Source of the DNA: Hormiphora californensis
Taxonomy: Eukaryota > Animalia > Ctenophora
Assembly: GCA_020137815.1 (NCBI GenBank)
Contig: CM035360.1
Location: forward strand, 6,076,001-6,140,000
Reading direction: 5' to 3'
Length of the DNA: 64,000 nt
The translations under genes were made by a program, and so were the position numbers. Each line of letters begins with the position of its first letter. Positions within the stretch are counted from its first letter, which is position 1. Shown here in pieces: positions 12,961-60,012 of this stretch. The notes beneath the pieces are model-generated. The model did not search any database. It was not told the origin of the DNA and worked only from the letters and a program-made list of their open reading frames with translations.

Positions 12961-13184
12961 TCATTACCGGGCACCGGCGGCCTGTTTCTCATGTAACACT
13001 GTGTTCTGCACTTCCTTTTGCGAAGTTTTGGTGGTTGTGATCTCAAAAGTTTTCATAAGTTTCAAGTTTGAGTTTTGTCATTTTTAGCAGCCTTCAGTAT
13101 AATTTATATTTGCCTGGGCCCATTTGTTGTCAAGGGATTGTCTTGGATGGTATCATATATTGGTATTCACATTTTTTTCAGGTC

Positions 13185-14147
13185 ATGACATCGTTTATTG
13201 ACCTGTTTGATCAAGTTTTCCTGACCACAATCGTTCTAATTGGAACCCCCCTAAACGTCATATGTTTTCTCTACTACCTGATTGGGCAAGAAGTACGGAC
13301 AGCATCGAGAATAGTGTATATTTGGATAACGTTCGTGGACATTTCGATCTGCTTTCTCACAATTGTTTCAGCAGTGTCCGCCTTTTCAATCTACCCTGAA
13401 ATTGGACTATTCAAATTTCCGATCCTTTGCAACATTCACGGCGTTTTGGGCGATATCACTCGCTTGATGTCAGTCTTTCTCATTTCAATTCTCAGTGCTT
13501 CCAGGGCAGTAGCCCTCAAGTATCCCCTTAGAGTTACTACGCTGATCACCAAACGAAAGGTCCTGGGAGTTATGATTGGATACTTGGTATTTACGGTGAT
13601 ATATACTTGTTTTCCATTCGCATGGAACAAACAATGTCAGTACACCGAGTTAATCCGACTCTGTATGGGATATATAATACTGCAACTTTTTCCAGAACAA
13701 CCGGCTGTTGCGATAGCATCCTACCTTCTACTTATAGTTTTACCCGCAATTGTAAAATTAGCAGGTGCAATAATATCCTTCATTTCCCTGAAAAGGGTAC
13801 GGGTGGGAAACCATCTTTCAACGCTAAGTCACCAAGACGCATCGGGAAACGTTGACAATAGCAGAAGTAGGAAGAGATATGCAACTGTTACGATTATTTA
13901 TCTCACAATAGCGTGTTTAATCATCAACGCACCCATACATATTTCAACTGCACTTGGTTTCATAAGTTTTTTCTTAGATAGGCCTGACTTAATGCTGCAA
14001 GAGTCGGTGTATCTGTATCGCTTTGCTTTTAACCATTCTGTTCCATTAAATGCGATTGTTAATGTGGTGATTTGTATTTGTCGAATCAAGGCATTACGAC
14101 AATTTCTGCATGTTCGTTTAACACAATTATTTCGTAGGACGGTATGA
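13185..14147 (+). CDS. Intronless class A (rhodopsin-like) GPCR, orphan
   Basis: Seven hydrophobic segments; TM1 GTPLN, TM2 D, TM3 C..SRAVALKYPL (DRY variant), TM6 INAP, TM7 LNAIVN. ATG 13185 follows a TTTTTTTCAG acceptor. Confidence 0.85.
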   Translation: MTSFIDLFDQVFLTTIVLIGTPLNVICFLYYLIGQEVRTASRIVYIWITFVDISICFLTIVSAVSAFSIYPEIGLFKFPILCNIHGVLGDITRLMSVFLISILSASRAVALKYPLRVTTLITKRKVLGVMIGYLVFTVIYTCFPFAWNKQCQYTELIRLCMGYIILQLFPEQPAVAIASYLLLIVLPAIVKLAGAIISFISLKRVRVGNHLSTLSHQDASGNVDNSRSRKRYATVTIIYLTIACLIINAPIHISTALGFISFFLDRPDLMLQESVYLYRFAFNHSVPLNAIVNVVICICRIKALRQFLHVRLTQLFRRTV

Positions 14148-16237: not shown

Positions 16238-16281
16238 CTCAAATTAATTTGTTTAAAGTAGTGTTGAAAAGTTTGAAAATC
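16238..16281 (-). other. SL exon copy 2
   Basis: Revcomp GATTTTCAAACTTTTCAACACTACTTTAAACAAATTAATTTGAG; one mismatch to the other two copies. Confidence 0.85.
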
Positions 16282-20000: not shown

Positions 20001-23000
20001 AGTTTTGTACCTGATATCTCTGTTAGTGGTATGATGCCATACTCCCGTGGTGTAACCTGTACCTTCACACCAATACCAGGTAGGGTAGATTTAACGGTAC
20101 ACCAGAACTTAGCTCCCTCTGAGCAGGGTCCTGGAGAAGGGGTACATCGTGAGGGTGATTTGTGTAACCATGGTAACCATGGCGATATGTGTAACCATAC
20201 ATGGTGATCCGTGTAACCATGGTAACAAGGTGATCTGTGTAACTGCACTTACCAACAAGAGATAGATCCAGCCGGTTATCTTGAATACTGAACACAGTAG
20301 CGGTAACTGGCTGACCAATAACAAACCTCTCCGTCCACCCGTCTATTTCTGATTTACTCTGCGAGGTCAGAGTCCGAACTAGCCGACCATCTACACCCGG
20401 TGATACACCTGAAATGTACCAGTATAATGTGGTTGTTATATCAGAGCCCCATCAGAGCTCTTTCAGCACTGCACAGATTTCAGTTGGCAGAGCGATCAGG
20501 GGAAATTTATACACCTTTAAAGTTTAAATACATAGTTATATTAGTTCAAATTAGTATGTTGAAGATGAGTTAGCTAGATGAGCTTGTAGGTAATAGTTCT
20601 GTAAGACTTACTAATCCAGATGAAACCACGGTTGTCAAAGGCCCGAACAAATCCAGATATCTCTTGGCCTACCACAAGGGTCTTTATCAAATCAGCTGAC
20701 TCATCAACCTAGAGGGTTATATTGTTGTATCTAATACGAGGGACTATGTTGGGATTGGGAACAGTGGTTGCCACTCAGAATCAGCTGTGATTTAGACAAA
20801 GATTGACACAGCAAATAGAAACATGATACGAGCAAGAGAGAAGGGGTAGAAAACGTAAGTTTGGAGTCTCTAACTTAGACAATAAGAAGAAACAATTCAC
20901 ACAACTTACCGTGTATTTTTGAGTTTGTATGACGTTATGTTTGTCAGTTTGTGGCACGCACAGGGGCGGCGGATAAGCATATATCATGGATATTGGAAAA
21001 TGAAATAACTGCCAGAACTAATCTGACTTTATAGTGTGTGGTGTACCGTAGACATGTTGTGTCTAGCAAGTTTATATCTTTTCCCCTAGTTCTCACCTTC
21101 TCCTTTTCACCTATCTCTCTCACTTTTCCCTCACTCCCAGCCTGTTTGATACTGAACTCCCCGACCGACATTACAAAGTTGGTAGCGGTAATGGGCAGGT
21201 AGCGGTGTGTTTTGGAGTGCCTGGAAGGGAGTAGTTGAGAAATGAAGCGATAGATAATAGTAGAGGGACAGCGACTACTGTATACAATTTCAGGACAAGT
21301 CACAAAAAACCAGTTTTTACCTGAATCCGATAAGTTTAGCTTCGAACTTGTCCCCCTGTTTGAATTGTGTCAGAGGGTTGAGATCAGCGGTGGGTGTATC
21401 TGTCACTTCCGTTATGTGAACTCTACCTTTCACCTGAACAACACATGAGAACGGTTAGACAACGATGCCAGGGATACATTGTGACATAGCAATGGGATAA
21501 AACGAAACTATAGGATTGTCAGACCTGTTAGGACAAAGATGAATATGAATTGTTCATACATTGTTAGTTTAGTAACACAAGGATAAATGTAGGATAAATG
21601 TAGGATAAATGTAGGATCGTCATCTGTTAGGGCAAGGATGAATATGATATGAATTATTTTAACCTTTTTGCCAAGTTGCACGTTCAATTGTATTGCTTTC
21701 ACTGAAGTAACGGTGACAGTGTAAACTTGTCCTAGTTTAATGTCATCGAATGTGACACTATCACCCTCACTCTTTGTCCTCTTCCTCTTCTCTCCTCCCG
21801 CTGTCTTGACAAACTCCAACAAGATTGGTTTACCTAAAATAGAAGGGGAAATAGTGGAGACGGATGGGTAATGGATCCTGAAATATTTTACGAATAAACC
21901 AATCATACAAACACATGTGTTTCAGAAATGTCAAGGAGACAAAAACAACTGATACCTTTCTCAGCAGTGCTAACAGTAAACTTCTTCTTGTCTCCACATG
22001 TCACTTCCTTGTTAACTAGCCTCCTTGAATCGTTGGTGTTGCCCCTTCGGGGTGCGTAGCACAATCTGGTACAGGGCGGTTATAAATAAGTGAACCAGGG
22101 ATTAATGAGGTTGGCGAGAAAAAAGGGGCTTGGCGTCACAGTGATTTGAATTGAACTTCCATGCGATATAGTACATCACACGCATGTAATTGCACTATTG
22201 TTAGCTTGTTCGCCCGGGTTTGGTACAGTCTGCGGCGCGCAGTGTTGAGACGAACACGTTCCGAAAATGCAGGATTATGGGAATGCAAATGAAAGTTAAA
22301 TAAAAATATAAATATTACCTGTGTCCCTTGTCAGCAACGTAAACAACAAAATACTCCTCCGTCACCAGAACAATCTCCCCCTCCACTTCCTCTCCCTCCT
22401 TCATCTTCTTCTTCTTCTTCCCCTCCTTCAACCCTTCTACCATCTCAGCACCATTACCGATACTGTATATATTCTGGGCAGCATCATAATCCAGTACCAC
22501 CCCCTCCATCTCAGTCCCGACATGTTGTTCCTGTGTCCCAGAAATAAATCCAACACCGGACCCAGTTAGAGATACAAAAGTGCCCTCTTTGGCCACCCTC
22601 GTTACTTCGCATGTAACTAGGCAACCGGGCGTATGTGCTGGCTGTCGTCCAAACTTCTCCCACTCAACAAACAGGCGTGAGAGCTGATCGACAGTGTTGC
22701 CCTCTATATCTGATCCCTTGAGAGACACCAGAAATCGGCCTTTTTCAAGATCAATATTTGTGACCTTACACACCACACTCTCGTTTGCTTTGAAGACCTC
22801 CGTGGGATCGCTCACAAAATCATCGCAAAGACAGGCCTTGGGACAGAGACCAATAAACCCGTTCGCTGTCTCAACAAAACATCCATAGTTCTGGAAATCT
22901 TTGATGTAACCAGGAACTAGGGTTCCAACTTCGAAATCCGTTATTTGCTTCTTGTTAGGGTTTGATTCCATCCATCCGAGAAGAGATGGTTTGGTGGTGA

Positions 23001-24769
23001 CAATTATCTTCTTCTGCCGCTTGCTCAATACCAAGACTTTGGGGAAGGAGGACCCGGGCGCGAGGAGGAGAAGGGGTTGTTCAAGAGCTGGGAAATCTGT
23101 TAGATGTCCGACCGGTAAATCAGCCTGTTCCCCAGTGCTCAACTGGACTAGGATGTTGTCTGTTGTTGTTGAGATGACCTATAGGAGGGAAGGAGTAATA
23201 TTAAACGTGGGAGGAGGAGTTGAAAGTAAAGGAAGGGGTGACGGGGATACGAGGAGTTGTTACAGAAAAAGAATAGAGATGGAAATTATTGACTTACTGT
23301 CGCGGAGTAGGTTTGCCCCTTTCTGGCCCATTTTGAATCATTAGAGTTTTTAGTAGCCGTCTCTTCTATCAGGTTGAGGCTGAGAGTCAATTTCTGATTT
23401 TCTGCATCAACACTTACAACACGGCAAGTTAACACCTGAGATAGAGTGATCATACAATACAACATAGAACATTCATTTACTTCCTCAGTGACTGAGTCAA
23501 TCCTCGTGTATTTTGAATTGACGCGGTTTCGTCTGACACTAAACCGAGGGAGACGCGCACACTGCTATGCTGTACGTAGTCCTTCTTTTACAATTCACAC
23601 ATCGCGCGTTACAAACAAGTAGTGTAATAAGGGGTGGGTTTTAGGGACAATGCGTGGTGCCACAAAATACACAGATCAGGGAACAAGGGACGGTACATGA
23701 CAGTGTGATTCTGTTACCAATTTGTGTCCAAATTGTCATGTACTAGTAAATAAAACGATTCTTAGACAACATCATAATTACCTGCCCGATCTTGTACATT
23801 CCTTCTATCTGTTCCACACTCAGAGGAACGTTGGATATTTGGCTGTTGTGAACTAGACCCTGAAATACAGAATAATGGTTTTATTTAAGTTTTATTTTAA
23901 GGAATTCAAGGCTTGTAATGAAAATGACACAACAGGGTGATTTCCACTTACCCTAACGTTTCCAGTAAAGTTCATGATAATTCCAAATGGTTTCACAGCA
24001 GCAACCCACCCTGTGACCTGTTCCCCAACCTTCATACCATCAAATCCCTGGACATCCGCTGTGTTGTTCCGGACCAGACTCTTTTTTAGGGTCAAAGAGA
24101 CACGTCGCTTAGCAACGTCTACAGAGATTACTTTCGCTTTCACTTTCTGGTTTTCCTTAAACTTTAGGGAGGGGTTCTTGATTCGGATATCGGCAAGGTG
24201 CAGCTTGGGCACCAGTGCTGAAAGAGAGATTGACTGTTGTTCAATGACTGTTTCTGTAAAGCAGTTGCCTTTTTCGACCCTGTCTCACAGCGCCCCACAC
24301 TCTTTAATAAATATTTTAAAGGAATACTAAATAAGTACCTCTGATGTTTTCAGCAAGTTTGACGATCAGCCCGAATTCCTCAACAGTCACAACAGTTCCT
24401 GATACTGTAGAGGCTACTACCACATCAGCATAGGATAGGAACTGTTTCGATAGGTCACTATCTCGTAGTGATACCTAGCAATGGGATAACAATGAAAAGA
24501 GGAGATGGAAAAGATCAAGTGGTTACTTCTACTGTTAGCTGGCTTTTGAAAGCTATAGTTCATATTCACTTTTCTCTATAAATTTGAGATTTATTTGTTC
24601 TCATCATGCATTTATTTGTTTTTGTTTCACTTACCTGGACCAGATTATCTGCACGTCGATATCCCATCACCCTAACTTTATGGGTCGTACCAGCCTTGTG
24701 CTTAGCTCCAATCTTCTCAGAATCCTTGTCCGTGATCTTGGATCTATGAGCAAAACCAAACACTCCTGC

Positions 24770-24806
<37 letters not shown>

Positions 24807-27131
24807 TATCAGTTTTTGGGATATAATAAGAGACTTGGACTTATCACATTATACTGATTATTTCTTAGTTTTAACAACTGTTTGACAACTAACCTGTGTC
24901 AAGTTCCAGAAATATTCCATCTTTGGTAACCCTGGTAACAGTAGCATCCTCAACTAGTTGGCCCCGATCCAGGGGAGGTGATCCAGCTGATTCTTCCAAT
25001 GTCAAGTGACATGATAGAGTACTGAGGAGGACACCCTGAAGAGAGAGAGAGGAGGTTGAAATAAGTCATCGCGGTAGTAGGGTACATTTTAGCGTTCCCG
25101 CGGGTCATTTTGTTACCAAGAGAGGGTTGGAGGTTGAAATAAGGGGATATATATTCACACTCAGCATAATATTTTTCTCGGTGTAAAGGAAGTGAAATAT
25201 AATTTACCTTATTTTCAGGGTTTATAAAAACAACGCGGGCCTGTAATTTTCTCTTGATTGGATACACCTCTTTTATAGTCCTCTCATTTCCATAAAGATC
25301 ACCCAGGTGGACTAGATGAATAGCACCCTGAAAATATACACGTCATTGCAAACTCCATATATATGGGAATCAGCTGCCATGGGACAGTGAACGCCATATA
25401 TGGGCATAAAACACTATGTTCACATGAATTTTATGCCTATATTTGGGTATCACGTGACTCACCTGCATGCCGTTGAGGAAGGAGCATCTGAGGCCGTTGA
25501 CAGTGTGTTTCTTGACCGATACATTGACCAGATGTCCGGGGAGAAGGGAAGAGAAGTTTCCAATCACCTTATCTGACTGAATCCTATCTTTTTTAGTGTA
25601 CCAATCTGGAAACATTGATACGTTGTGGTAACACAACTAAGTAGAAAGCTTGATGAGAAAAACAGTCAATAATAATATTAGTTTGTCCCAAAAATAATCA
25701 CCCCTTAGTCCTTACCCAGTATAACACTGCTCTCAGTAGCACTCTTTACGGTTGCCATGACAACGTCACACGGTTTCAGGGTGACGTCAGCAGACTTGGA
25801 AAGGAAGGCCGTGGTGTTGGATATACCGACATTAACCAGATACCCATGATCTTCAACACTACTTACTACACCCTGTACCACCTGGGAGAATTATTGGGTT
25901 ACACCCAAGTTACACAAAAGTCCCGGCACTTTTACAATCCATACTGAATAGATCGAAGACTCCCAAAGCAAACTGATAAAAAATTGTTCAAATGTTATCA
26001 AGGACTGCCGGAAAAACTTCAAATTCAACAAAACTAACTCATTTCCCACGTTATATGATTCTCACCAGATGTTTGTTGAGGTCTTGTAGTTTGAGATGTT
26101 TGTTAACAACAGAGGGTTTGGTAGTCAGGTAGCACTTTTTAGCCTTGTTAACTGTGTCCACTGAGAGGACACTACACAGGAGGGACTGTCCAACACTAAC
26201 AATGTCACATAGATCTGGTACCGACTAAAGGGGGGGGGGTTAGGAGAATACAACCTCCTTGATCTGAAACAAGTGTCCAAGCTACTTTATGATCAGCTAA
26301 TTTCGAGCTACTTTAATTTCACTGCTATTTCTAATACTCAGTACCACAGATGGCATGCCCCATCCTATTGTCCCTTACCGTATCTTCGGTGTTCCCTTCT
26401 TCACTGGATAGAAGGCTGTTAAACTCGTCACTCAACTCAGTGCCTGAGTGACAAGTGTTTTAAAACCCGCGTGTGGAAGCTGTCAAGTATCATCTTACTT
26501 TTACATGTTATCTTAGTTTGGGTTTCCAGGGGACATGAATATTGAATATTCAACCAGAGCCCAGAATAAATTAAACTTCAACATTAAAATTGCAGGGGCG
26601 AAGTGTGTTCCACATACCTTTTATAAAACCTGTGAGACCGAATGGGAGATTTAACACAACATCAACCTCCCCAACCTCACTCACAACTCCAAGGAGAATA
26701 GTACCCGGCTGAAGTTTCTGAAAAAATGAAAGATATATAAAGATCTAGATTATAATCTGTTGTACTGTGTTCTGAACAACAGTCGAGATTCAACAACTAA
26801 ATCCTATACCTTGTATGAGACTTGTTCCAGAGGTTTTCCCAGGTCCAGCTCATCTTTCAACGTGTTCTTCTTAGGTTCCTCAACTGGGACTTTCTAAAAG
26901 AAATGGATGTCACATTTCAAAAGATGTGAAACAAACTATATCGTGCCTGCCATCTAGTCTGACGTAAAATATCAATGTTTTGAAGAACAGGAAACTTACG
27001 AATAAATTATCACTTTCTGGTCCTTCCTTAGTTTTTAGTTTTTTAGTGGTCGATCGACCTCTGACAAAGTCAACTTCTTCTGTCAGCTTTCGTTTTTCTT
27101 TTGTCTCTGATTCATCTCCGGCAACCGCCAT
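17007..27131 (-). CDS. PDCD11: rRNA biogenesis protein RRP5 (S1 repeats + C-terminal HAT repeats), many exons
   Basis: N-terminus MAVAGD..VDFVRG. S1-domain exons, e.g. GYIKDFQNYGCFVE (22315-23142) and FKENQKVKAKVISVD. C-terminal HAT exons ending LPAKKMKFFFKRYIDFE..ARDFIESSDQ* (stop 17007-17009). Confidence 0.92.
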
Positions 27132-27811: not shown

Positions 27812-29368
27812 TTATTCAACAAGTGATCGAAAAGACTTTGAGTCCTGGAAAATATCACTTCTCACTGCTAAACACAAATTTACTTTTGAAATGTCAGGCC
27901 CAGCGACATTAAAAATTTTGGAGAAAGTGGACTTGGCTGACTCGACAAGAGTTTCCCGACTCTCATCATTCGTTCCATAAAAAAAGTTTTTCCCTCTCAC
28001 ATCACAATACACATAATTAAATAACCAGTAGCATATGTAAGCCATAGGAAGGACTGGGGCAAATTTTCCCTTGAAGCAGTATCGATAGAAATCCTCAGAA
28101 GTTCCAGAGCCAAGCCTCTCAGGGCAATAAAGATCTGTACGGTGAAGCTCAGGATGCTGTACTCGATTTCGAATCAGCCGAATTATATCACTAAGGTTAC
28201 TATCGCTAGCCAGTTTAAACCCATAAAGTTGTTCTGGAAGTAGGCCTAGAGGCTCTTGTTTTTTCTTTGAGCCTTTCTTTTTTTTCGGTGGTACAGAAAA
28301 CTGTTTCCAGTATTGTTCAACTTGTGCTTTCAATGCTCCTCCAATGAATGGAGGGGTTGTGAGTAAAGTATTGCACTCGTTGAGAAAGGTCATCTTTTTT
28401 TCAATACTCCAAAAGAGTGGGTGATTAAGAATCTGCGGGGCGGAAATACGCTTTTCAGCAGCTGTTACAACACAAACGTCAATCAACAAGTCGGCAAACA
28501 ATGTGTCAGCGTGTAAATTTTTCTCCGAAATAAAAGATACCCTCAATGATTTGGCTATGTTTCCGTTGCGATGATGATCAACCCCAAATGGATGCTCAGC
28601 TTTAACAGATGTCCACTCAGAACTTCGTTGAAATGTCATTATGAATTGTGCCAAACAACCGAAAGCAAACACGTCTCCAGAACACCCGGCTTTCTTTGAG
28701 CCATTTAATGTTTCTGGTGGCATCCAACCGTGTGATCCAACTCTTTGTTGACTTACAGTAACACACTTCCTGTAGGGATCAACTTCTCGAGACAGGCCAA
28801 AATCAGATATTACGGGAATGAATTTGTTAAGCTGAGGGTTGTATTTAACCAAGATATTCGAGGGTTTCAAATCCCGGTGGACAACTCCTTCCCGGTGCAT
28901 GTAGTCCATTCCATTTGCAATCTCCAATAACATTTCCTTTTTACTTGACCAATTTCCATCCAAGTCGTTTTTTGGATACGGGGTCCCAAAAACAGTTGTT
29001 CCATTCGATAGAAGAGTGACCAAAGATCCAAGACAAAGCTCAAGGGCAATTTTCTCGAAATCATCGTCGAAGTCGTAGAAATAATACCGTATGATATTTT
29101 CGTGCTTTAGTTTCAAAAGGGCACTAATCTGGTGATTCACATTCTTCTTTAGCTCCTCATCATCACTCTGGATCCTTTTCACAGCAACAATCTTTTCACT
29201 TGGACCTTGGACGAACAGCCCGAAGTAAACGATTCCTTCACTGCCTTTATCAATACGAAAAGCCGGTTTAGCTATGAGCTTGATTGGACTCCCAAACTTG
29301 CCGTAGAGATCCTGGAAATTTGCATTCCCTTTCAAGAATCTGCGAGCCACAATGTTTTCGTATGACAT
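27812..29368 (-). CDS. IRE1/RNase L-like kinase + KEN ribonuclease, copy 1 (intronless, no sensor or TM domain seen)
   Basis: VAVKRI, HENIIRYY, IALELC, HRDLKPSN, ISDFGLS, GSHGWMPPE, DVFAFGC, HPFG, HPLFWS; KEN motif DIIRLIRNRVQH. Likely start MSYENI at 29368; the ORF extension upstream is (CT)n. Confidence 0.88.
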   Translation of the reverse strand: MSYENIVARRFLKGNANFQDLYGKFGSPIKLIAKPAFRIDKGSEGIVYFGLFVQGPSEKIVAVKRIQSDDEELKKNVNHQISALLKLKHENIIRYYFYDFDDDFEKIALELCLGSLVTLLSNGTTVFGTPYPKNDLDGNWSSKKEMLLEIANGMDYMHREGVVHRDLKPSNILVKYNPQLNKFIPVISDFGLSREVDPYRKCVTVSQQRVGSHGWMPPETLNGSKKAGCSGDVFAFGCLAQFIMTFQRSSEWTSVKAEHPFGVDHHRNGNIAKSLRVSFISEKNLHADTLFADLLIDVCVVTAAEKRISAPQILNHPLFWSIEKKMTFLNECNTLLTTPPFIGGALKAQVEQYWKQFSVPPKKKKGSKKKQEPLGLLPEQLYGFKLASDSNLSDIIRLIRNRVQHPELHRTDLYCPERLGSGTSEDFYRYCFKGKFAPVLPMAYICYWLFNYVYCDVRGKNFFYGTNDESRETLVESAKSTFSKIFNVAGPDISKVNLCLAVRSDIFQDSKSFRSLVE

Positions 29369-29464
29369 GGCTAAACAGAGGATAACAGTGGGGTTTACAG
29401 TGGGAGAACAATATAGGGAATAGGGATTTTGATTGCGGGGTGAGTCGGGAGAGAGAGAGAGAGA

Positions 29465-29536
<72 letters not shown>

Positions 29537-30034
29537 AAGAGAGAGAGAGAGAGAAAAAATCAGAGAGGGAAAGATAATGATGAAACCCGGAGAGGGCAAA
29601 GGTGTCAGTTTGACAACAAAAGTGGTCACCTTTCCAGTCAACTAATTTCTGATTTTTCCATAATATTTACAATTTACATTGTCAAAAAATATTGTACTCT
29701 AAAAAAACCCAAACGGTTCGGGTACTTCAATAAATCGTGCTTAGATTATGGGTTTATAATTTACGAGAGAGCAAATTTTACTCTCAAACCCACACCTCTG
29801 ACCTCCAAACCCACACCTCTGACCAGAACACTGTCACCACACCCATGGCCATACAATTGCGATTACAGATACCCCAAGTTTCAAGTAAGCGTAAGAGGTG
29901 TAAAAAATTGTTAAAGAGGGCTACCCGCTGAGTGGTCCATCCGGCAAAACCAGGTCGATCAACGTAAACTTTTGCGGCTTACCGTATCTTTCAGTCATTT
30001 CCATAGCAAAAAACTACCGGTAGTACAGACTTGA

Positions 30035-31657
30035 TTATTCTGTGTGTGATGAGCTTGGCCCCAATCCCATTGCAGCCGATTCAGCACTCATTTGCTTAGT
30101 AGATCGGAGCATATCACTCATGGATTTCCTCATACTTTCATTAGTCATCGAAAACGAAACAAAGCTGAACAAATTCTTAAACCAAACACTTGAAATAAGA
30201 AGCCCAGCAAGCTTGAAAATCTTAGTAAAAGTAGCGTTAGCTGATTCAATAAGAGTTTCATGTCCGTACTTGTAAATGTCCCCCTCGCAGTATAACTTAT
30301 CATGAGAGTAGCATATGTAAGCCATAGGAAGGACTGGGGCGAATTTTCCGTTGAAGCAGTATCGATAGAAATCCTCAGACGTTCCAGAGCCAAGCCTCTC
30401 AGGGCAATAAAGATCAGTACGGTGAAGCTCAGGGTGTTGAGCTTCATTAGTAATTAACATAATTATTTCGCTAAGTCGACTGTCACTAGTCAGTTGAAAC
30501 CCATAAAGTGATTCCGGGACAGGCTGTTGCTTCTTTTTCGACCTTTTGCCTTTTTTCTTCGGAATAGACAACTGCTTCCAGTAGTTTTCAACTTCTCCAG
30601 CTCCCCTCACCCCTCTATTTAAGGAGCTTTGAGGTGTTGTGAGTGAAGTATTGCACTCTTTAAGGAAGGTCATCATTTTTTCAGCAGACCAAAACAAAGG
30701 ATGCTTCAAAATCTGTTGAGCAGAAATTCGCTTTTCAGCAGATTTATATACACAAACGTCAATCAACAAGTCAGCAAACAATGTGTCGGCGTGTAAATTT
30801 TTCTCCGAAATAAAAGATACTCTCAAAGCCCTTGTGATATTTCCGTTCCGTTCATGGTCAACTCCAAATGGATGCTCAGCTTTAACAGATGTCCATTCAG
30901 AACTTCGTTGGAATGTCATTATGAATTGTGCCAAACAACCGAAAGCAAACACGTCTCCAGAACACCCGGCTTTCTTTGAACCATTTAATGTTTCTGGTGG
31001 CATCCATCCGTGTGATCCTACTCGTTGTTGACTTACAGTAATACACTTCCTAGAAGGATCAATTTCTCGAGACAGGCCAAAATCAGATATTACGGGAATG
31101 AACTTCTCAATCTGATGGTTGTATTTAACCAAGATGTTGGAGGGCTTCAAATCCCTGTGGACAACTCCTTCCCGGTGCATGTAGTCCAGTCCATTAGCAA
31201 TTTCCAATAACATTTCCTTTTTACTTGACCAGTTTTCATCTACGTTGTTACCTGGATATGGGCCCCCAAAAACGGTTGTACCATTCGACAGAAGAGTGAC
31301 CAAAGATCCAAGACACAGCTCAAGGGCAATTTTCTCAAAATCATCATCATAGTCGTAAAAGTAATACCGTATGATATTTTCGTGCTTTAGTTTCAAAAGG
31401 GCACTAATCTGGCGATAAACATTCTTTTTTAGCTCATCATCATCACTCTGGATCCTTTTGATAGCCACAATCTTTTCACTTGGACCTTGGACGAACAGCC
31501 CGAAGTAGACTAATCCTTCGCTGCCTTTACCAATTCGGAAGGCCGGTTTAGCCTTGAGCTTGATCGGACTCCCATCACCAAACTTGCCGTAGAGTGTCTG
31601 GAAATCTGCATTGTTTTTCAGAAAACCTTGAGCCACACTATCCTCATAAATTGACAT
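30035..31657 (-). CDS. IRE1/RNase L-like kinase + KEN, copy 2
   Basis: Close paralog of copy 1; KEN motif altered to EIIMLITNEAQH. Start MSIYED at 31657. Confidence 0.88.
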   Translation of the reverse strand: MSIYEDSVAQGFLKNNADFQTLYGKFGDGSPIKLKAKPAFRIGKGSEGLVYFGLFVQGPSEKIVAIKRIQSDDDELKKNVYRQISALLKLKHENIIRYYFYDYDDDFEKIALELCLGSLVTLLSNGTTVFGGPYPGNNVDENWSSKKEMLLEIANGLDYMHREGVVHRDLKPSNILVKYNHQIEKFIPVISDFGLSREIDPSRKCITVSQQRVGSHGWMPPETLNGSKKAGCSGDVFAFGCLAQFIMTFQRSSEWTSVKAEHPFGVDHERNGNITRALRVSFISEKNLHADTLFADLLIDVCVYKSAEKRISAQQILKHPLFWSAEKMMTFLKECNTSLTTPQSSLNRGVRGAGEVENYWKQLSIPKKKGKRSKKKQQPVPESLYGFQLTSDSRLSEIIMLITNEAQHPELHRTDLYCPERLGSGTSEDFYRYCFNGKFAPVLPMAYICYSHDKLYCEGDIYKYGHETLIESANATFTKIFKLAGLLISSVWFKNLFSFVSFSMTNESMRKSMSDMLRSTKQMSAESAAMGLGPSSSHTE

Positions 31658-32358
31658 GGCTTTAAGAAAATAAGGAGAGTGGACAGAAACAGAATTGGAG
31701 AAGATTGTTTTAGCAGAGGATAGCTCTCCAATCTCCGAGCATTGTCTTTTTATGCATTTATCACTGAGATATTTCCCCCGCCCGGGTAAAGGCCGAAGGC
31801 CTTCACCTGGATACCTTTTGCAAAAAGACATAGGGTTTTAGAAATCTGTAACGGATATAGTGACTATGTGTAGCAAGACCATCACAGATGTCCCGTTTCA
31901 GTTGCGAGGGGCAACGTGTAGCAACTAGAGCCATACACACAACAAAAAACGTCTCCTTCATAAACCACTTCATTGACACGTTTTCAGAAAATGTGTGGTG
32001 CGCAATGCCACAATGTGGTGCACAGTTTAGCGCTACTAAAACACAATGATTTATTCTATACTGTTTGAGTGATATATCAATGATCGGAAATGTCAGCCCG
32101 CTTTCACATTAGATGGTTATGAAAATAAGGATTGGCAGGGAAACATAGCATTATGAAACATAATGCAGGTATTTTTGTTGATACAACGGGGCAAAGAAAA
32201 CAACCGCATGCAATTAAGTTTTACATAATTATATCTTTGCCTCTTATTATCTCTTATAAAATAAGAATAATTTTGAAGAAATAATATCAAGTAATTTTCT
32301 CCGCCCGTATGCGTTTTGCAGAAAGGCATAGGGGTGTAGAAATCTTTAACGGATATAC

Positions 32359-33379
32359 TAGTTAGGGAATTTTAGCATATTTTTCAGCAAAATTTTTAAC
32401 AAGCTAATTTCTTCACCAATAGATCCGGATAGGTGTCTAGTATCACCAAAAAAAAGTACACGATAATCGGAAGTGCGCACACGCGCTGAGCGCGCAAGAA
32501 GTAAACACATGTAAATACATGTATTTCTAGCCTGGCACGAAAACCCAAAAACCATCTTAGGAGACGAGTAGAGAAAAAATCAAGGGCACTAGATTGTGTA
32601 GCGTCCTCGCATTAGTGGGGGTAGGTGCTGAAATTAAGTCTCTATCTCATCTGGTTAATTAGATAATTGGATAATTAGATATGCGCATAACCGTATTTTG
32701 GCTATATGGCTATAGCCACTTAGGAATGGTTTAGAGACTTTTCAATGGTGCCATTTTGTTCAGAAAAAAATTTCAATCTAAGAGTTGTGGAAAAATTTAG
32801 AGCCTATCTCTTACCGTTTTGGCGTAATTCGCAGTCAAAGAAGGCCAATTAACTGATTTTTTGGCATTTTCGGCTGATTTGGCATACTTTGACCGCAAAT
32901 AACGCCAAAACGGTAAGAGATAGGCTCTAAATTTTTCCACAACTCTTAGATTGAAATTTTTTTCTGAACAAAATGGCACCAATGAAAAGTCTCTAAACCA
33001 TTCCTAAGTGGCTATAGCCATATAGCCAAAAAACGGTTATGCGCATATCTAATTATCCAATTATCTAATTAACCAGATGAGATAGAGACTTAATTCCAGC
33101 ACCTACCCCCACTAATGGGAGGACGCTACACAATCTAGTGCCCTTGATTTTTTCTCTACTCGTCTCCTAAGATGGTTTTTGGGTTTTCGTGCCAGGCTAG
33201 AAATACATGTATTTACATGTGTTTACTTCTTGCGCGCTCAGCGTGTGTGCGCACTTCCGATTATCGTGTACTTTTTTTTGGTGATACTAGACACCTATCC
33301 GGACCTATTGGTGAAGAAATTAGCTTGTTAAAAATTTTGCTGAAAACTTGGCCCTTTTTTTACTAAAATTCCCTTACTA
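32359..33379. mobile_element. ~1-kb foldback (near-perfect palindromic) element
   Basis: Arms of ~490 bp are reverse complements, centred near 32865; the ORF track shows mirror ORFs at 32358-32555 and 33172-33366. Confidence 0.88.
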
Positions 33380-34569
33380 TACATACACTGTGGGATTATA
33401 ATACACTGTGCGATATTATGTATATTTAGTATAATGTACTAAATTTCTTTAGCATGACCAATGACCATTGATGGTTGACTAGAAAATTGTCCCGTAGAAT
33501 AACACACGGCACACAAGAAAAGAACTTGACCGAGGAAGTCTGTGCATTTTGAGCATCGTCATCTTGTTGCAATGGCGGCTGATGGGTGTTGGATAGCTAG
33601 TTAGCAAGGTTTGATTGTATTGCAAGAAGTGAAGAAACATCGTATGTATCTCTGATCTCACATTACATTATGATCTATGACCAAGCCTTAAAGAGGGGGA
33701 AACAGAGCAGTATGACCACAGTATGACTACAGATTGCACTAATTTTATAATTCTTTCAAAGATATCAAAATTTATTTCACACAGTATTTTCCTTGTTTTC
33801 GTGACTCCGAAACTTACACCCTCACTTGCACTCAGCGGTATTAAAGACGTTTTGAATTTCTGTGATACACATATCGTAACTTTCAGGTCAGTTTTTACTT
33901 GAGTTTGCCATCACAGCCTCTTTTGATTCAGTCACCTGTAAATATACATATAATTTAATTTAGCCGGTACCCCCTCATAATGAATGCCGAAATGCCCAAA
34001 ATCAACAATCAGGATACTGGAGTGTACTGCAGTAAAACGTAATACTTTCAGCACTCACCCAATAAAATGTAACGATGTGGCATCTAGAAATTCATCTTAT
34101 CACACTCACCGTCTGTTGAACCCGTCTCCAATGACCTGACCATTGTGCTAAATATATAAGAGAGTGAGATTGAGAGAGTGTGAAAGAAAGGGTATCCCGT
34201 TGCAGGGGAAAAGAGTTTGACACCTGAACTCAAAGATCTGAAAAGATGTAAATAGGTACATAGAACTTGACACAATTTCACATTCATGATAGTTTGTCAC
34301 TGTTATTGAACAAACACAGTCTGGAATTCACTTTTTTCAAGTAAAGAATTCAATTTCAACTTGGTTAAAAACCCAAATGTTTGATTACATAAAAAGGTAC
34401 AATACTTAAGAACTAAAAACACATATCTCGCTAAAAACTCCTAGAAAGTTGGAATGAATCATACCATCGGACCGAAAAAGAGCCCTGTTTTCATTTAACT
34501 GTTCCCTTTTGTAACAAAAGAGATAGAGGGGGTCAGAAGCCCTTACATACAAACAGGAGTTAGCATATA

Positions 34570-34724
34570 CAGTCGGACCCCGATTTACGGGGATGCTCGG
34601 GGAAAGGGTTTTACCCGGTAAATCGGGGTGCCCGGTATATCGGGGTCAAATACCGTTAATTTCCTATATCGGGGAATTTTATCCTCCCGGTAAATCGGGG
34701 TTCCGGTAAATCGGGGTCCGACTG
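34570..34724. mobile_element. Tc1/pogo-type MITE, family copy 2
   Basis: TA-CAGTCGGACCCCGATTTAC..GTAAATCGGGGTCCGACTG-TA. Confidence 0.85.
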
Positions 34725-34936
34725 TATGACTAAAATATCCATCTTTCTCTCTCTTAGATTCATAATATGTAATTAGTGAATATCCATTCTTGGTTACCGT
34801 AGCAACAAACAACACGGATAGCTACACAGATTTACCTCTTCACAAGACCAGATAAATGGGATATATTATCTATAGAGTATTGATATAACACGGTGGGACA
34901 GATGGGATAAAAATTCAGAAGAAAAATTAATGTAGT

Positions 34937-35180
34937 GTGCCTGATAAAATTTTAACCTGGGCTAGAATTTGGGTACAGTGTCCCCTCTCTTCTTGAGAGA
35001 GACAGCACAGGAGGATAGAAGAAGGGGGGATATCATACCCAACGCTAGAATGCTTCCAGAAACCACCACTTGTCTACTTAAATACTTTGTTGTCGCACCG
35101 TAGCGGCATCATATAAACCCTTAGCTACAAGTGGTGGTTTCTGGTAGAATTCTAGGCGGTGTTAAAATTTCACCAGGCAC
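34937..35180. mobile_element. MITE-like element
   Basis: GTGCCTGATAAAATTTTAAC..GTTAAAATTTCACCAGGCAC, plus internal inverted repeat CCAGAAACCACCACTTGT/ACAAGTGGTGGTTTCTGG. Confidence 0.65.
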
Positions 35181-36497
35181 GCCATGAGGCATACATGCTA
35201 CAACAGCCCATTAAAATACTATTAAATATTTGTCAATTTAATAAACACTGTCAAATTACTGTATAGATCAAAATATCAAGAATTAGTTTTCTTCTGAAAC
35301 TGTGGATCCAGGATTTTTCAAGATGTTTGATAATCCTTCAAACTGAGAATCCACAGAAGAAAACACCTGATTTGCCGAATCACAAAGGTCTGCAAAATTT
35401 TCTTGTTTACCGTCTAGATCCCGAAAATCCGCCAATATTTGGAAAAAAATGTAAACGAGTGGAAGTATGAATGCAAACCTTTTACCGAAGCAGTAGTGAT
35501 AGAAATCTGCAGAGGTCCATTCCTCGAAGTTTTGAGGAAAGTTGAGCTCTACTGGAATTTTTTCCTTCGTTTCACGATGCTGCACCCTATTACGAATTTT
35601 ACGGACAATGACAGAAAAATCATCACTGGGGACACAGCCAAATCCGATCAACTTGACATCGTTTTTCTTGTTAAACTGCTGCCAATAAGAGTCAAAATGC
35701 TTGATATAAATTTTGTTAGATTGTAGCTTTATGTTAAACTCATTAAGCAGATTCATCTTTTCTTCCTCGGACCAAAATAGAGGATGTTGCAAGATACTCT
35801 TCGCGTTGAGCCTCCTGTCAGGCTTGTTGCAAATGCAACTAGAAATTAGCATGTCAGCAAAGATAGTATCTGCTTTTCTGGTTGTGTTGCTAGAAATGAA
35901 AGAGACTCTGGATTTTTTAATAATATTGTCTTCCCGTTGACGGTCAACTCCAAATGGGTGCTCAGAGCACTCCTCAGCCTTCGCCGACATCGGCTTTTCA
36001 CTTCGTTGAAAGGTCATAATAAATTGAGCCACACAACCGAAAGCAAAGATATCAAAAGAAAAATAAGCCTTACGTGATCCATTCAAGGCTTCGGGAGCCA
36101 TCCACCCATGGGTACCAACTCTTTGTTGAGTCACTGTGACATATCTCCTGCTGTCATCGATTTCTCGAGATAAGCCAAAGTCAGAGATGACAGGAATATA
36201 TTTCTGAGATCGTGGATTAAACTTGACCAGTATGTTAGAAGGCTTGAAATCCCTATGGACAACTCCTTGTTCGTGCATGTAGGAAAGACCTTCCACAATT
36301 TCAAGCAGCAGTTGCTTCTTCTGCGTCCAGTCTTTATCCAAATCGTTCCCGGGAAAAGGTTCTCCAAATACAGTCTTTTTGTTTGTTAGAAGAGTGACCA
36401 AAGAACCCAGGCATAACTCCGTAGCTATTATTTTAAAATCATCAGTTAAGTCATAAAAAGTTGTTGAGCCAGTCCAAGTGGGCTGGGGGCACCGTCC

Positions 36498-39145
36498 GTG
36501 GTGGATGAAGGTGGGTTGCAGCTGATAGCAGCTGATAGGAGTGTAGGCACCGAGCGACGGACAGCACAAGAGGAACTGCACCGCAAACACCAGAGGAAAC
36601 TAGAGGATGCAAGGGTACGTGTAACCGTCGGAGACACCCCTCCCCCTTCCCCTCCTAACACCGCTCCACCCACCCCTCTCCCCCAAGTTGCAAGCCCCCC
36701 TTCTCCCCTCCCCCACCCTTCTCCTCCTCCCTCACCCACTTCCCAGCCCTCCGCCACCCCCACCCCCTCCCTTCCCCCCATCCCCCTCCCCACTCCCCAC
36801 ACCTCCCATCACCCCCTCACCACCCCACACCCATCACCAGCACCATCACCAGCATGTGACATAGCCGAACACGCACCCACTCAGCTAACCACCGCCAGCA
36901 AGACCCTCCTTGCCATGGGACCGAGCTTCATGCTGAGCCCCACCACATCTCACCGGCAACTGTCCACAATGGCCACCCTGGGGCTCGAAAGAGCTATCTG
37001 CTCCATCAGATACGCTTTCACCTCAGCAGAGCCAGGATCACCACCAGCGAGAGAACGGCAGGACGAAGCACCACCATCCCTCCACAGAGTTGCTGGCAAG
37101 TTTGAACACCTTGGGATCAAACAACCCAGGTTGGCAGACGAGCCCACAGAGGCAGCTATCACTGAACTACGAGGAACTCTGACCCCCATTCTCAAATCAA
37201 GGGCCAACTGGAAGGTGACAACCAACCACAAGAGGACGGACCTCGACAGCCTAAGGGATGCTACTGCGAACCTCACGGATGTAACAATCATCCCAACGGA
37301 CAAGACGAACAGGTTCTGCACCCTCCCAACATCAGCCTGTGAAGAGAGACTGAAACAACACCTCTCAAACGGTTGGATAGAGCTGAGTGGGGACCCATCT
37401 ACAATGTACCAACTGGAGGCAAACCAGCTGCTGCAGGACTGCCTGAAAGTAGGTAGAGTCAGTCAGACGCTACCTCCACGACCGCTCCATCCAGGCATGC
37501 CACCGCCCCCATCATCTACCCCCTGGCCAAAGACCATAAGCCGGACTTTCCCAACACCAAGGTCAGGGTGGTACAACCAGTGGCAGGCAGCGCAGTGGAG
37601 AAACTAGATGTAATCGTGGCCAGCATTTTGTCACAACTGCTCCCCCTCCTGAGATACAGGGTGGACTCCAGCTCTACCTTCATCTCCAGTTGCCTGGCCC
37701 CCTGGGTCGAAGGAGGGCACACATCACCAACCCCAGCCCCGCTCCTGGGTCCGGAACACGTCATAGTGTCCATGGACATTGAGGCAATGTATCCGTCCCT
37801 GCCAACCCACAGGATTGCAATGGACGTCCTCTTTGACTACCTACAGGAACACAAGGACAACATCGACATGCTGGGATTCGACCCACATCACATCACCAAG
37901 TTCATGCAGTTCATCACTTCCCATACATATGCACGGGCATGCGGGAACCACTACCTGCAAACCACCGGTGTCGGAACAGGGTACCATTCCTCGGGAGCCT
38001 ACGCCGAAATCCTAGTCGACTTCACCTACAGGCGTGCCCTCACCAACACGGAACCTGACAAAAGACCCCTCTACCTGGGAACCTACGTGGACGACTCCAA
38101 CTCCATGTGGAAGACAATAGGAGACGCCCACAACTTCCTGAACCGTCTCAACAACGTATGGGAAGGGGAGCTAAGATTCACCATGGAGGAGCCGAGTCAC
38201 CGCCGCATCAGCTTCCTTGACACCCTGCTAACCATAACAGATGAAGGGAAGATACAGCACCAGCTGTACCAAAAAGAAACACACTCGGGAATGTACCTAC
38301 CCTACAACTCCCACTGTGAAACAAAGACTAAACTCAACATAGTCACAACGGAGGCCAGAAGGATCCTCAGACTGTGCTCCAGCAAGGAGCTCGCCTGGCC
38401 CCACCTGGAAACACTCCGCCGCAACCTGATCAACTCCGGGTACCCACAGGAACACGTCGCCATCACCATCACAAGAGAAGCAGCGAGGCACACGCCCCAC
38501 ATACACGCCACACAACCACCCACCACTATCACACCCCTTCCCCCTACCTCTCCCCCTCCCCCCACCCACCCTACCCACCCAGCTCCCTCGGACACGGACC
38601 CCAAATTCATCCTGAAGATCCCCTATGTAAACGAGGCTCTCACAAGAAAGATCCGGACAACAACAGCCAGGTCCGGCATCCCCATACGAGTCGTGACAAC
38701 AAGCGGGAGAACAGTGAAGAGTGAGGTCAAAACAGCCCTAGTCCGGAAGGTTGCCCCATCACCCACTTGCAACTGCAGACTGCACCTAGCCGAGCTCCCA
38801 TGCAACATCAGGAACGTGGTGTACAAGGCCACATGCAGACACTGCTCCCAAGTCTACATCGGAGCTACGGCACGGCCTCTAAGGGAAAGGGTGAAGGAGC
38901 ATGAGAGCAGCCAGCGCCTAGGAAACGACAGGAGCACCTTGGGGAAACATCTTGTTACGGCCCACCCATCATCAGTAACCGGAGAGAGACACGCCAGAGA
39001 CTATGAGAGATTTTTTGAGAACTATGATTTTAGAATTTTAGACCGAGGGAGAGATTGTCTGGACACGTTTTTGAGAGAGAATATAGCAATTCAGCGGGAA
39101 CAGCCACGTCTGAATGAGTGCCAAACAAACGGGTTCATATTCTGA
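36498..39145 (+). CDS. Penelope RT + GIY-YIG endonuclease, one frameshift near 37500 (ORFs 36498-37607 and 37568-39145)
   Basis: TDKTN, SMDIEAMYPS, GVGTG, YVDDS, ISFLD, LYQKETH; VVYKATC..C..VYIGAT..LRERVKEH. Confidence 0.88.
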
Positions 39146-39295
39146 TTACCACCTAGACCACAGCTACCATACTGCAAAGTAATCAGAATATGATCCCACC
39201 TGTTCTCACATTTCGGGCGAGACTGCAACCGCTAATTGATAGTTTCATAGTAGGGATCGTGAGCATAAAATATGTCAAACACATTTTCACCAGTA

Positions 39296-39332
39296 TTGTA
39301 CTGAAGAGGGCATTCTGCCGAAACGTTTATTT
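39296..39332 (+). ncRNA. Putative minimal hammerhead ribozyme in the Penelope 3' region
   Basis: CTGAAGA-g-GGCA-ttc-TGCC-GAAAC-GTT; minimal hammerheads are known in Penelope termini. Stem I pairing is weak. Confidence 0.5.
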
Positions 39333-39895
39333 TTGTTTTGAAAATTCCTTGTTCTGAATGTCTGATACAACTCCGGAAAACGTGAGGAACACAGCAGCTA
39401 TCAGCTGCAACCCACCCAAGTCATAAAAATAAAAACGCACGATATTTGTGTGTTGCAACTTAAAAAGAGCTTCAATTTGATGGTCAAACTCCTTCTTTTC
39501 CTTTTCATCGTCACTCATTATTCGTTTAACCGCCGCGATCTTCGCAGTAGTACCTTGAACAAATAGTCCAAAATATATAAACCCCTCACTTCCTTTGCCA
39601 ATTCGAAGAGATACATCAGCTTTTAGTCGGATTGGTGATCGGGTGTCCCCAAAGTCACCATAGAGATCTTGAAAGAATTCAGATTTAGCCAGATGAATTT
39701 TAGCCAATTTCTGCTCATACGACATCCCGATCACTAAATTGGGAAGCGGAAAGTTTAGCAGCGATAAACAGTAACTTTTTAATAAAACACAATTAACTGG
39801 AGTGAACAGGTACAATAACTCATAACAAATTAATATTTTATTAATTACAGTGTGCATAATACAAAATAATATCAATATTCCGGACTGGGTGATCT

Positions 39896-40234: not shown

Positions 40235-40786
40235 AGAACTAACATCTCGACTAGCAGAGCTAACATCTCGACTAGCAGAGCTAACATCTCGACTAGCAGA
40301 ACTAACATCTCGACTAGCAGAGCTAACATCTCGACTAGCAGAGCTAACATCTCGACTAGCAGAACTAACATCTCGACTAGCAGAACTAACATCTCGACTA
40401 GCAGATAACATCTCGACTAGCAGAACTAACATCTCGACTAGCAGAACTAACATCTCGACTAGCAGAACTAACATCTCGACTAGCAGAACTAACATCTCGA
40501 CTAGCAGAACTAACATTCGACTAGCAGAACTAACATCTCGACTAGCAGAACTAACATCTCGACTAGCAGAACTAACATCTCGACTAGCAGAACTAACATC
40601 TCGACTAGCAGAACTAACATCTCGACTAGCAGAACTAACATCTCGACTAGCAGAACTAACATCTCGACTAGCAGAACTAACATCTCGACTAGCAGAACTA
40701 ATATCTCGACTAGCAGAACTAACATCTCGACTAACAGAGCTAACATCTCGACTAGCAGAACTAACATCTCGACTAGCAGATAACAT
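40235..40786. repeat. 21-bp minisatellite, ~26 copies
   Basis: AGAACTAACATCTCGACTAGC, highly homogeneous. Confidence 0.97.
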
Positions 40787-59968: not shown

Positions 59969-60012
59969 GAGTTTCAAACTTTTCAACACTACTTTAAACA
60001 AATTAATTTGAG
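59969..60012 (+). other. SL exon copy 3
   Basis: Identical to 811-854; followed by TTTTAG, not GT. Confidence 0.88.

Follow-up and report, generated by a model that had tools for sequence, protein, structure and literature searches.

IRE1 and RNase L both combine a protein kinase domain with a C-terminal ribonuclease domain of the KEN type. IRE1 additionally possesses a lumenal sensor and a transmembrane segment, and RNase L possesses ankyrin repeats that bind 2',5'-linked oligoadenylates (2-5A). To our knowledge, they are the only kinase-KEN ribonucleases that have been studied, and each is activated through a sensor domain belonging to its own polypeptide. A family made of kinase and KEN domains alone raises the question of how this module is controlled without a built-in sensor. 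Such a family is described here from the ctenophore Hormiphora californensis. The DNA analysed, hereafter the window, is a stretch of 64,000 nucleotides of contig CM035360.1 (assembly GCA_020137815.1, positions 6,076,001 to 6,140,000). Its list of open reading frames (ORFs) and a translated search of the whole 64-kb window revealed three paralogous kinase genes in tandem on the minus strand, at positions 27812-39725. Each gene of the array consists of a single ORF, and a retroelement has split one of the three. By sequence comparison, the three copies are kinase-KEN members of the IRE1/RNase L superfamily.

The resemblance to IRE1/ERN1 (yeast Ire1p, human IRE1alpha; PDB 6w3b, 3fbv, 2rio) covers the kinase and the C-terminal KEN domain over about 400 residues. 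The motifs HPFG and HPLFWS as well as the Arg-Asn-His (R-N-H) of the RNase site are common to both. However, the window copies have no signal peptide, lumenal sensor, or transmembrane segment. They also lack the catalytic Tyr of IRE1, carry Gln in place of the kinase alphaC Glu, and have a Lys-rich insert in the KEN domain. Moreover, their clade lies outside the canonical IRE1 clade, which has a Shimodaira-Hasegawa-like approximate likelihood ratio (SH-aLRT) support of 98, and grouping with animal IRE1 is rejected by the approximately unbiased (AU) test (p 5.8e-5). With RNase L of jawed vertebrates, the copies share a soluble kinase-like domain joined to KEN and possibly some traits of its pseudokinase domain, which binds nucleotide without transferring phosphate. 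In contrast to RNase L, they have no ankyrin repeats and therefore no 2-5A site, and in the tree they stand apart from P0092, an RNase L-like protein of a fish.

Proteins of this bare architecture have already been described. RNase L homologs composed of kinase and RNase only are reported to be widespread in eukaryotes, falling into ten clades, and RNase L has been proposed to arise from a protein of this kind by the gain of ankyrin repeats (Proc Natl Acad Sci 2023, PMC10400998). The window copies have the same two-domain architecture without ankyrin repeats as these homologs. However, the survey (PMC10400998) is described as based on Pfam PF06479, the threshold of which is not reached by the window copies. 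Another example is the sensor-less IRE1C of Brassicaceae (Arabidopsis AT3G11870), likewise an IRE1-type kinase-RNase without a sensor domain, which in the account cited plays no part in the response to endoplasmic reticulum stress (PMC6788458). IRE1C branched off recently within plant IRE1, whereas the ctenophore clade is not nested in canonical IRE1; a short plant protein in our tree, P0238, nests with Arabidopsis IRE1. Since kinase+RNase-only homologs and IRE1C are in print, the window family is not a categorically new class. The original prediction, made for this stretch from its letters alone, had announced a third class of soluble kinase-RNases. It was right about a sensor-less kinase-KEN group outside canonical IRE1 and overstated the novelty. 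The family is real and uncharacterised, and is a variant of the published bare kinase-RNase architecture. In the ctenophore literature touching on IRE1, RNase L, the KEN domain or the kinome, no published study of a ctenophore kinase-KEN family was found among the matches listed; the match for Mnemiopsis was one genome paper, mentioning the RLI domain only. The importance of the family lies in its several paralogs, its conservation over distant ctenophores, its purifying selection, and its position outside canonical IRE1. It could also give a picture of the RNase L ancestor.

Organisation of the array and its kinase-KEN proteins

Copy 1 (27812-29368, minus strand) is an uninterrupted single ORF of 518 amino acids (aa). 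Copy 2 (30035-31657, minus strand) is also a single ORF, encoding 540 aa from a conserved ATG at 31657 to a stop at 30035, and its C-terminal tail departs from that of copy 1 through indels that shift the frame. The spacer between them on this strand (29369-30034) measures 666 bp, in agreement with the predicted distance of about 670 bp. Within it are a (GA)53 microsatellite (29449-29554) and, 2 bases before the copy 1 ATG, an acceptor-like ctgtttag. Copy 3 lies in two pieces on the minus strand. The 5' part (39418-39725) extends from the ATG to a target-site duplication and encodes residues ~1-103, and the 3' part (35283-36459) encodes the remaining kinase and the KEN domain with the motif IRNRVQH. 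In the translated search, the stretch 39725-39417 corresponds to copy 1 residues 1-100 and the stretch 36458-35286 to residues 97-497, the frame being identical for both. When the inserted element and one copy of the repeat are left out, copy 3 becomes an ORF of 1,473 nt and 490 aa with zero internal stops. Three paralogs of about 520-540 aa had been predicted; three minus-strand copies are indeed present and the two intact ones have 518 and 540 aa, but the third is split by an insertion and rejoins to 490 aa. The IRE1-type kinase motifs named in the prediction, HPFG (here EHPFG) and HPLFWS, are found in all three. The segment preceding the kinase is somewhat longer than the predicted 30 aa or so, measuring about 37 aa; copies 1 and 2 are identical at 29 of its 37 positions, and it is modelled as two helices.

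In copy 1, Pfam, phmmer, hhalign and the structural model together delimit the 37-aa N-terminal segment, a Pkinase domain (Pfam, residues 41-319), and a KEN-like domain (residues ~316-450) containing R400-N401-H405. Kinase and KEN are contiguous by phmmer, hhalign and VIA-align. At E ≤ 0.01, Pfam reports protein-kinase families only on the three copies. The best matches of copy 1 among solved structures by phmmer are IRE1 kinase-RNase chains (E 3e-29), which align with query residues 39-445 and thus reach far past the kinase; the runner-up family, IRAK4 (E 2e-16), matches the kinase part only. The C-terminus of copy 1 taken alone matches the IRE1 chains weakly (E 0.017-0.25). In a profile-profile comparison by hhalign, the C-termini of the short family (16 rows) were compared with the KEN domains of IRE1 and RNase L (8 rows), each group having been realigned separately beforehand. 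This comparison returned a probability of 98.0% and an E of 1.7e-13 over 108 columns. Furthermore, the relative P0008 clears the Pfam family Ribonuc_2-5A (PF06479) with 26.6 bits against a cut-off of 23.3. The top matches of residues 316-470 in the ESM Atlas score 0.87-0.89, under the 0.9 level and thus a lead only, with PF06479 on about half of their members. Judged from these comparisons, the C-terminal domain of the copies is a divergent homolog of KEN. A Lys-rich loop, PPKKKKGSKKKQ (residues ~358-377), precedes the active-site segment of this domain and is modelled as disordered.

The predicted fold points in the same direction. The AlphaFold2 model of copy 1, built on an input alignment of 26 rows with IRE1 rows among them, has a predicted local distance difference test score (pLDDT) of 74.2 and a predicted template modelling score (pTM) of 0.81. 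All 30 Foldseek matches in PDB that were listed (ranks 1-50) are IRE1, with target TM-scores of 0.74-0.79. With VIA-align, model residues 17-465 superimpose on residues 562-963 of human IRE1 with a Z of 31.8 and a root-mean-square deviation of 3.2, pairing 384 of 398 residues. Kinase-only chains reach a Z of ~25 and their alignment ends at model residue ~321.

The kinase of copy 1 keeps Lys64, Asp166, Asn171, Asp189, and Glu219. The KEN Arg-Asn-His is retained in copy 1 (R400-N401-H405) and in copy 3 (IRNRVQH). Codons 400-405 of copy 1 (RNRVQH; 28154-28171, minus strand) align with RNKKHH of IRE1, and in the phmmer alignment of IRNRVQH with MRNKKHH of human IRE1, the R, the N, and the second H are aligned and kept. 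Of the 20 rows of the short family, 15 have an intact R-N-H, copy 1 among them, and the fish RNase L-like P0092 has R-N-H in the same alignment columns.

Absence of a sensor and relationships of the family

The predicted lack of a sensor is borne out by domain search, translated search, and hydropathy, as neither the copies nor the 64-kb window contain lumenal, transmembrane, ankyrin, CARD or PYRIN coding sequence detectable by these means. In Pfam, none of the lumenal, ankyrin, CARD, PYRIN, and BRCT families was found on the copies or on 18 other long ORFs of the window (of 43 listed); canonical IRE1 members, with their beta-propeller-like lumenal sensor, show PF13360/PF13570 (of the PQQ_2 / Beta-prop_ACSF4 kind) in Pfam. 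A tblastn search of the window with 15 sensor-bearing relatives yielded 103 high-scoring segment pairs (HSPs), and all those with E ≤ 0.1 came from kinase or KEN parts and fell on the three copies. None of ten canonical IRE1 queries had an HSP with E ≤ 0.1 in the window that stemmed from its lumenal part. Similarly, no window match was obtained with the ankyrin parts of P0014, P0082, P0092, and P0128 or with the BRCT part of P0002. The maximum 19-residue Kyte-Doolittle means are 1.47 in copy 1 and 1.39 in copy 2; both are below the level of a transmembrane segment and lie in kinase or tail regions. Additionally, no fused long form of the window family was found among proteins of 908-2590 aa, where 39 matches with E ≤ 1e-20 reached 30% identity at best.

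The nearest protein is P0001 (573 aa, 86% identity), a full-length counterpart of copy 1. P0003-P0013 follow with 30-39% identity and lengths of 477-558 aa. Among the short relatives are two RefSeq models of the lobate ctenophore Bolinopsis microptera, XP_063690479.1 ('IRE1-like', 497 aa) and XP_063690065.1 ('IRE2-like', 518 aa). The contig is 20.8 Mb long for both of these, and several paralogs are apparently on one chromosome or contig. Short relatives exist in other ctenophores; the named ones belong to Bolinopsis microptera, and for the others we infer a ctenophore origin. The two Bolinopsis models are similar to the window copies in length, in having the same two domains, and in the absence of a sensor, and a single clade of the short forms and the window copies is not rejected. 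They differ from the window copies in sequence (30-39% identity) and in keeping the alphaC Glu, and their names are automatic only. Among the relatives P0009, P0010, P0011, P0013, and P0130, several are without the KEN His or Arg (T-N-F, H-N-N, Q-N-R, R-N-F), and in one of the five the HRD Asp is replaced by Asn. Catalytically dead paralogs occur next to intact ones, apparently on the same contigs.

A phylogeny with IRE1 and RNase L was computed by a quick maximum-likelihood search (LG+G4; 59 rows, 380 kinase-KEN columns), which did not include copy 3 on account of its division into two pieces. Its support values are weaker evidence than those of a careful run since the search was quick and relied on SH-aLRT only. 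The canonical IRE1 of plants, fungi, and animals forms one clade (SH-aLRT 98). The window clade, consisting of copies 1 and 2, P0001, and P0002 (SH-aLRT 99), falls outside it in an unresolved base and apart from the fish RNase L-like P0092, and the other short forms cluster with the ankyrin-bearing P0014 (SH-aLRT 86). In AU tests, whose groups were named after the tree was seen, a clade of the window sequences with 16 animal IRE1 rows was rejected (p 5.8e-5), and a clade of the window sequences with 22 other short rows was not rejected (p 0.353). The sequence data thus support the view that the window clade is not an offshoot of animal IRE1. Elsewhere in the tree, P0187 (CARD-kinase-KEN, 499 aa) and P0175 (PYRIN-kinase-KEN, 543 aa), both of which clear Pfam Ribonuc_2-5A, nest within the vertebrate IRE1 clade and represent death-fold adaptors joined to the IRE1-type RNase module. 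P0137 of Anopheles cruzii has two kinase-KEN units in one chain of 1057 aa, and P0128 of Daphnia magna is a model with three kinase stretches and ankyrin repeats; these two possibly reflect additional expansions among related kinases, or tandem genes that have been merged.

Copies 1 and 2 have been under purifying selection since their duplication. Their synonymous divergence (dS) is 0.49 and the ratio of nonsynonymous to synonymous divergence (dN/dS) is 0.23, with values of 0.18 for the kinase (256 of 284 residues identical) and 0.28 for KEN (93 of 123). Copy 3 is saturated at synonymous sites relative to both (proportion of synonymous differences, pS, 0.78-0.81), and contains no stop or frameshift of its own. 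A clean ORF despite such saturation indicates that the array is old and has been maintained, and that the break in copy 3 is recent. Of the tandem expansion and turnover that had been postulated, the turnover is confirmed by the retroelement that broke copy 3 and by the loss of the KEN Arg in copy 2.

Predicted activity and competing explanations

The reading preferred here, with moderate confidence, is that the array encodes soluble, sensor-less kinase-KEN proteins that are predicted to bind nucleotide, to pair back-to-back, and to cut RNA, the trigger likely lying outside the protein. By analogy with IRE1 and RNase L, binding of nucleotide to the kinase would promote back-to-back dimerisation, through which two KEN domains are united. 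His405 would serve as the main catalytic residue of a metal-independent RNA cleavage. In the absence of a sensor in cis, the switch might be protein concentration, phosphorylation, or a partner bound to the conserved 37-aa N-terminal segment. A regulatory role within heterodimers is conceivable for the paralogs that lack Arg or His, and the disordered Lys-rich loop (~358-377) may help RNA binding or direct nuclear import. The RNase activity of the copies, as far as it can be read from the sequence, is uncertain. Should the proteins prove to be active RNases, they would be candidates for an RNA-decay or defence pathway of early animals; should they be inactive, they would record that catalysis was lost repeatedly in the KEN fold. 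The antiviral or anti-transposon role put forward in the original prediction may be suggested by analogy only. A more far-reaching version, which seems distinctly unlikely, would make the family an old, separate ctenophore branch of stand-alone cytosolic or nuclear kinase-RNases that expanded in tandem as innate-immune RNA-cleaving effectors. Self-association or a trans sensor docking on the N-terminal segment would be the switch, and RNase-dead paralogs would tune the response through heterodimers. If true, the lineage that is sister to other animals would have evolved a defence resembling RNase L in its logic, in which neither ankyrin repeats nor 2-5A took part.

Several observations speak against an active, sensor-less RNase, at the catalytic sites, in the recognition of the KEN domain, and at the 5' ends of the genes. 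The kinase alphaC Glu is replaced by Gln in copies 1, 2, and 3, P0001, and P0002, which may impair phosphotransfer; it is present in the remaining 55 rows except P0266, where Gln is also found. The KEN motif of copy 2 is ITNEAQH, in which the phosphate-binding Arg has become Thr, so that the predicted conservation of R, N, and catalytic H in IRNRVQH applies to copies 1 and 3 and not to copy 2. P0009, P0010, P0011, and P0013 also lack Arg or His, bringing the affected rows to 5 of 20. The catalytic Tyr of IRE1 (yeast Y1043) aligns to Ala387 of copy 1 in phmmer, MAFFT, and hhalign, and its position is occupied by Ala, Thr, or Val across the window copies. A Tyr five residues upstream (LYGF) is not preserved in copy 3 or P0002. 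Pfam Ribonuc_2-5A matches the C-terminus of copy 1 with E 0.041 and 14.5 bits (cut-off 23.3) and does not match copies 2 and 3. Because Pfam is weak or absent on these C-termini, KEN homology is argued here from profile-profile comparison and fold. The IRE1-like model is itself not fully independent, since the AlphaFold alignment held IRE1 rows, and its KEN region has middling confidence, with pLDDT below 50 at residues 363-386 and 410-417.

The absence of the catalytic Tyr from all window copies, the scattered losses of Arg or His, the sub-threshold or missing Pfam matches, and the lower conservation of KEN than of the kinase would all suit signalling kinases or pseudokinases whose KEN domain is non-catalytic (a pseudo-RNase) and serves as a dimerisation or scaffold module. 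The array would then diversify kinase signalling. This alternative is possible, though on the unlikely side. R-N-H has been kept in most of the short family and in four of the five window-clade members, despite the synonymous saturation of copy 3, and the KEN part is still under purifying selection. Moreover, the RNase residues of yeast Ire1 are given as Y1043, R1056, N1057, and H1061, and the substitution H1061N is reported to cost at least 3e5-fold, whereas Y1043F costs only about tenfold (PMC3149027). As the His matters most and the Tyr contributes only about tenfold in yeast Ire1, a missing Tyr need not abolish activity, and it does weaken the case for it.

It may also be asked whether the ORFs are 3' exons of larger genes, onto which a sensor or adaptor, for example the BRCT region of P0002, is spliced via an acceptor before the ATG. 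A pyrimidine tract followed by AG stands 2-10 nt before all three ATGs. Besides the site in the spacer before copy 1, there is one before copy 2 (31658-31680, minus strand), with aaag 2 bases before the ATG, and one before copy 3 (39726-39750, minus strand), with tttag 8 bases before it. The claim that the genes are intronless is consequently limited to their coding ORFs, which are uninterrupted by introns. None of the three genes was covered at 85% likeness by one set of contigs presumed to derive from RNA, a result with no bearing on expression. The reading frames are open for 60-91 codons upstream of the ATGs, that of copy 2 for 60 codons to position 31837. Furthermore, P0002 (819 aa, 53% identity), the public gene model of a paralog, has BRCT domains modelled ahead of 'IGMSYEQ'. 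However, the interval between copies 1 and 2 is short and partly filled by the microsatellite, sensor-type coding matches were found nowhere in the window, and the Bolinopsis RefSeq relatives have 497 and 518 aa only, with no fused long relatives found among the proteins searched. A simpler reading of the acceptor sites is available as well. The spliced leader of Hormiphora californensis is reported on at least 56% of Iso-Seq reads (PMC8527503), and the window contains the 44-nt leader in exact form at 811-854 and 59969-60012 (both plus strand) and with one mismatch at 16238-16281 (minus strand). Given a leader on so many reads and copies of it in the window, trans-splicing is the simplest reading of the sites before the ATGs.

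The BRCT front of P0002 is open to doubt for another reason. A Met-initiated stretch of 44 codons at 27000-27131 (minus strand), ~680 bp downstream of the copy 1 stop, is identical to residues 743-786 of P0002 at 43 of 44 positions. This stretch probably represents the initial coding exon of the adjacent gene and not part of a kinase. The kinase of P0002 is only ~52% identical to that of copy 1, in contrast to the 43 of 44 for its tail piece. Such a difference fits a merged model, which makes the BRCT front suspect; P0002 (BRCT, kinase-KEN, and tail) is probably a fusion of neighbouring genes made in annotation. Taken together, the 3'-exon explanation is very improbable.

Even less weight is given to a decaying array whose copies are pseudogenes or about to become so. 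In favour of decay are the retroelement insertion in copy 3 and, in copy 2, the missing KEN Arg together with the frame-shifted tail. However, copies 1 and 2 are full-length ORFs with a dN/dS of 0.23 at a dS of 0.49, copy 3 has no stop or frameshift besides the insertion and was hence maintained until its recent hit, and copy 1 has the full-length counterpart P0001. The preferred reading of soluble kinase-KEN proteins thus comes with three corrections to the original picture: copy 3 is a fresh retroelement casualty, copy 2 has lost an Arg of the catalytic site, and the only sensor-bearing public model, P0002, looks merged.

The retroelement in copy 3 and neighbouring features

The element in the coding exon of copy 3 occupies 36460-39417 on the plus strand (2,958 bp). 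Its two ORFs overlap and include a YVDD motif as well as a GIY-YIG at the C-terminus. The element is flanked by an exact 12-bp direct repeat, the target-site duplication AAGTCATAAAAA, at 36448-36459 and 39418-39429. This 12-mer occurs just twice in the whole window, at 36448 and 39418. Inverted repeats of 25 nt are located at 36510-36534 and 39392-39416. The GIY-YIG match (E 0.0009-0.0014) is under the Pfam cut-off, and Pfam finds no RVT_1 in the ORFs of the element, in which the YVDD motif is visible. The closest ESM Atlas clusters (score 0.97) bear HTH_animal, RVT_1, and GIY-YIG. From the YVDD motif, the weak GIY-YIG, and these clusters, the element that entered the coding exon is probably a Penelope-like retroelement. 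Its ORFs overlap at 37457-37607 (plus strand) in different frames, which means that the element itself has a frameshift or an intron.

The three spliced-leader copies in the window are not followed by a GT donor in any case. A 1012-aa ORF with matches to PHD and reverse transcriptase has its ATG 41 nt beyond the copy at 811-854, and the sequences after the leaders at 59969-60012 and 16238-16281 are related to each other. These copies look like leader-capped retrocopies or retroelements, not leader RNA genes. An origin of the kinases as retrocopies that retained the spliced leader was also considered and rejected, as the leader 44-mer is present at three window sites, none near the kinases. Likewise, the 44-codon stretch at 27000-27131 was rejected as part of a fourth kinase copy, since it starts with Met and matches only the tail of P0002, with 98% identity.

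Other ORFs of the neighbourhood are different in kind. The ORF at 51247-52395 (plus strand) encodes a papain-family (cathepsin-like) protease with an I29 propeptide, that at 13059-14147 (plus strand) has a sub-threshold match to a rhodopsin-type receptor with seven transmembrane segments, and that at 22315-23178 (minus strand) contains an S1 RNA-binding domain. Directly upstream of copy 3, a 21-bp minisatellite of 26 copies with 96% matches extends over 40235-40780.

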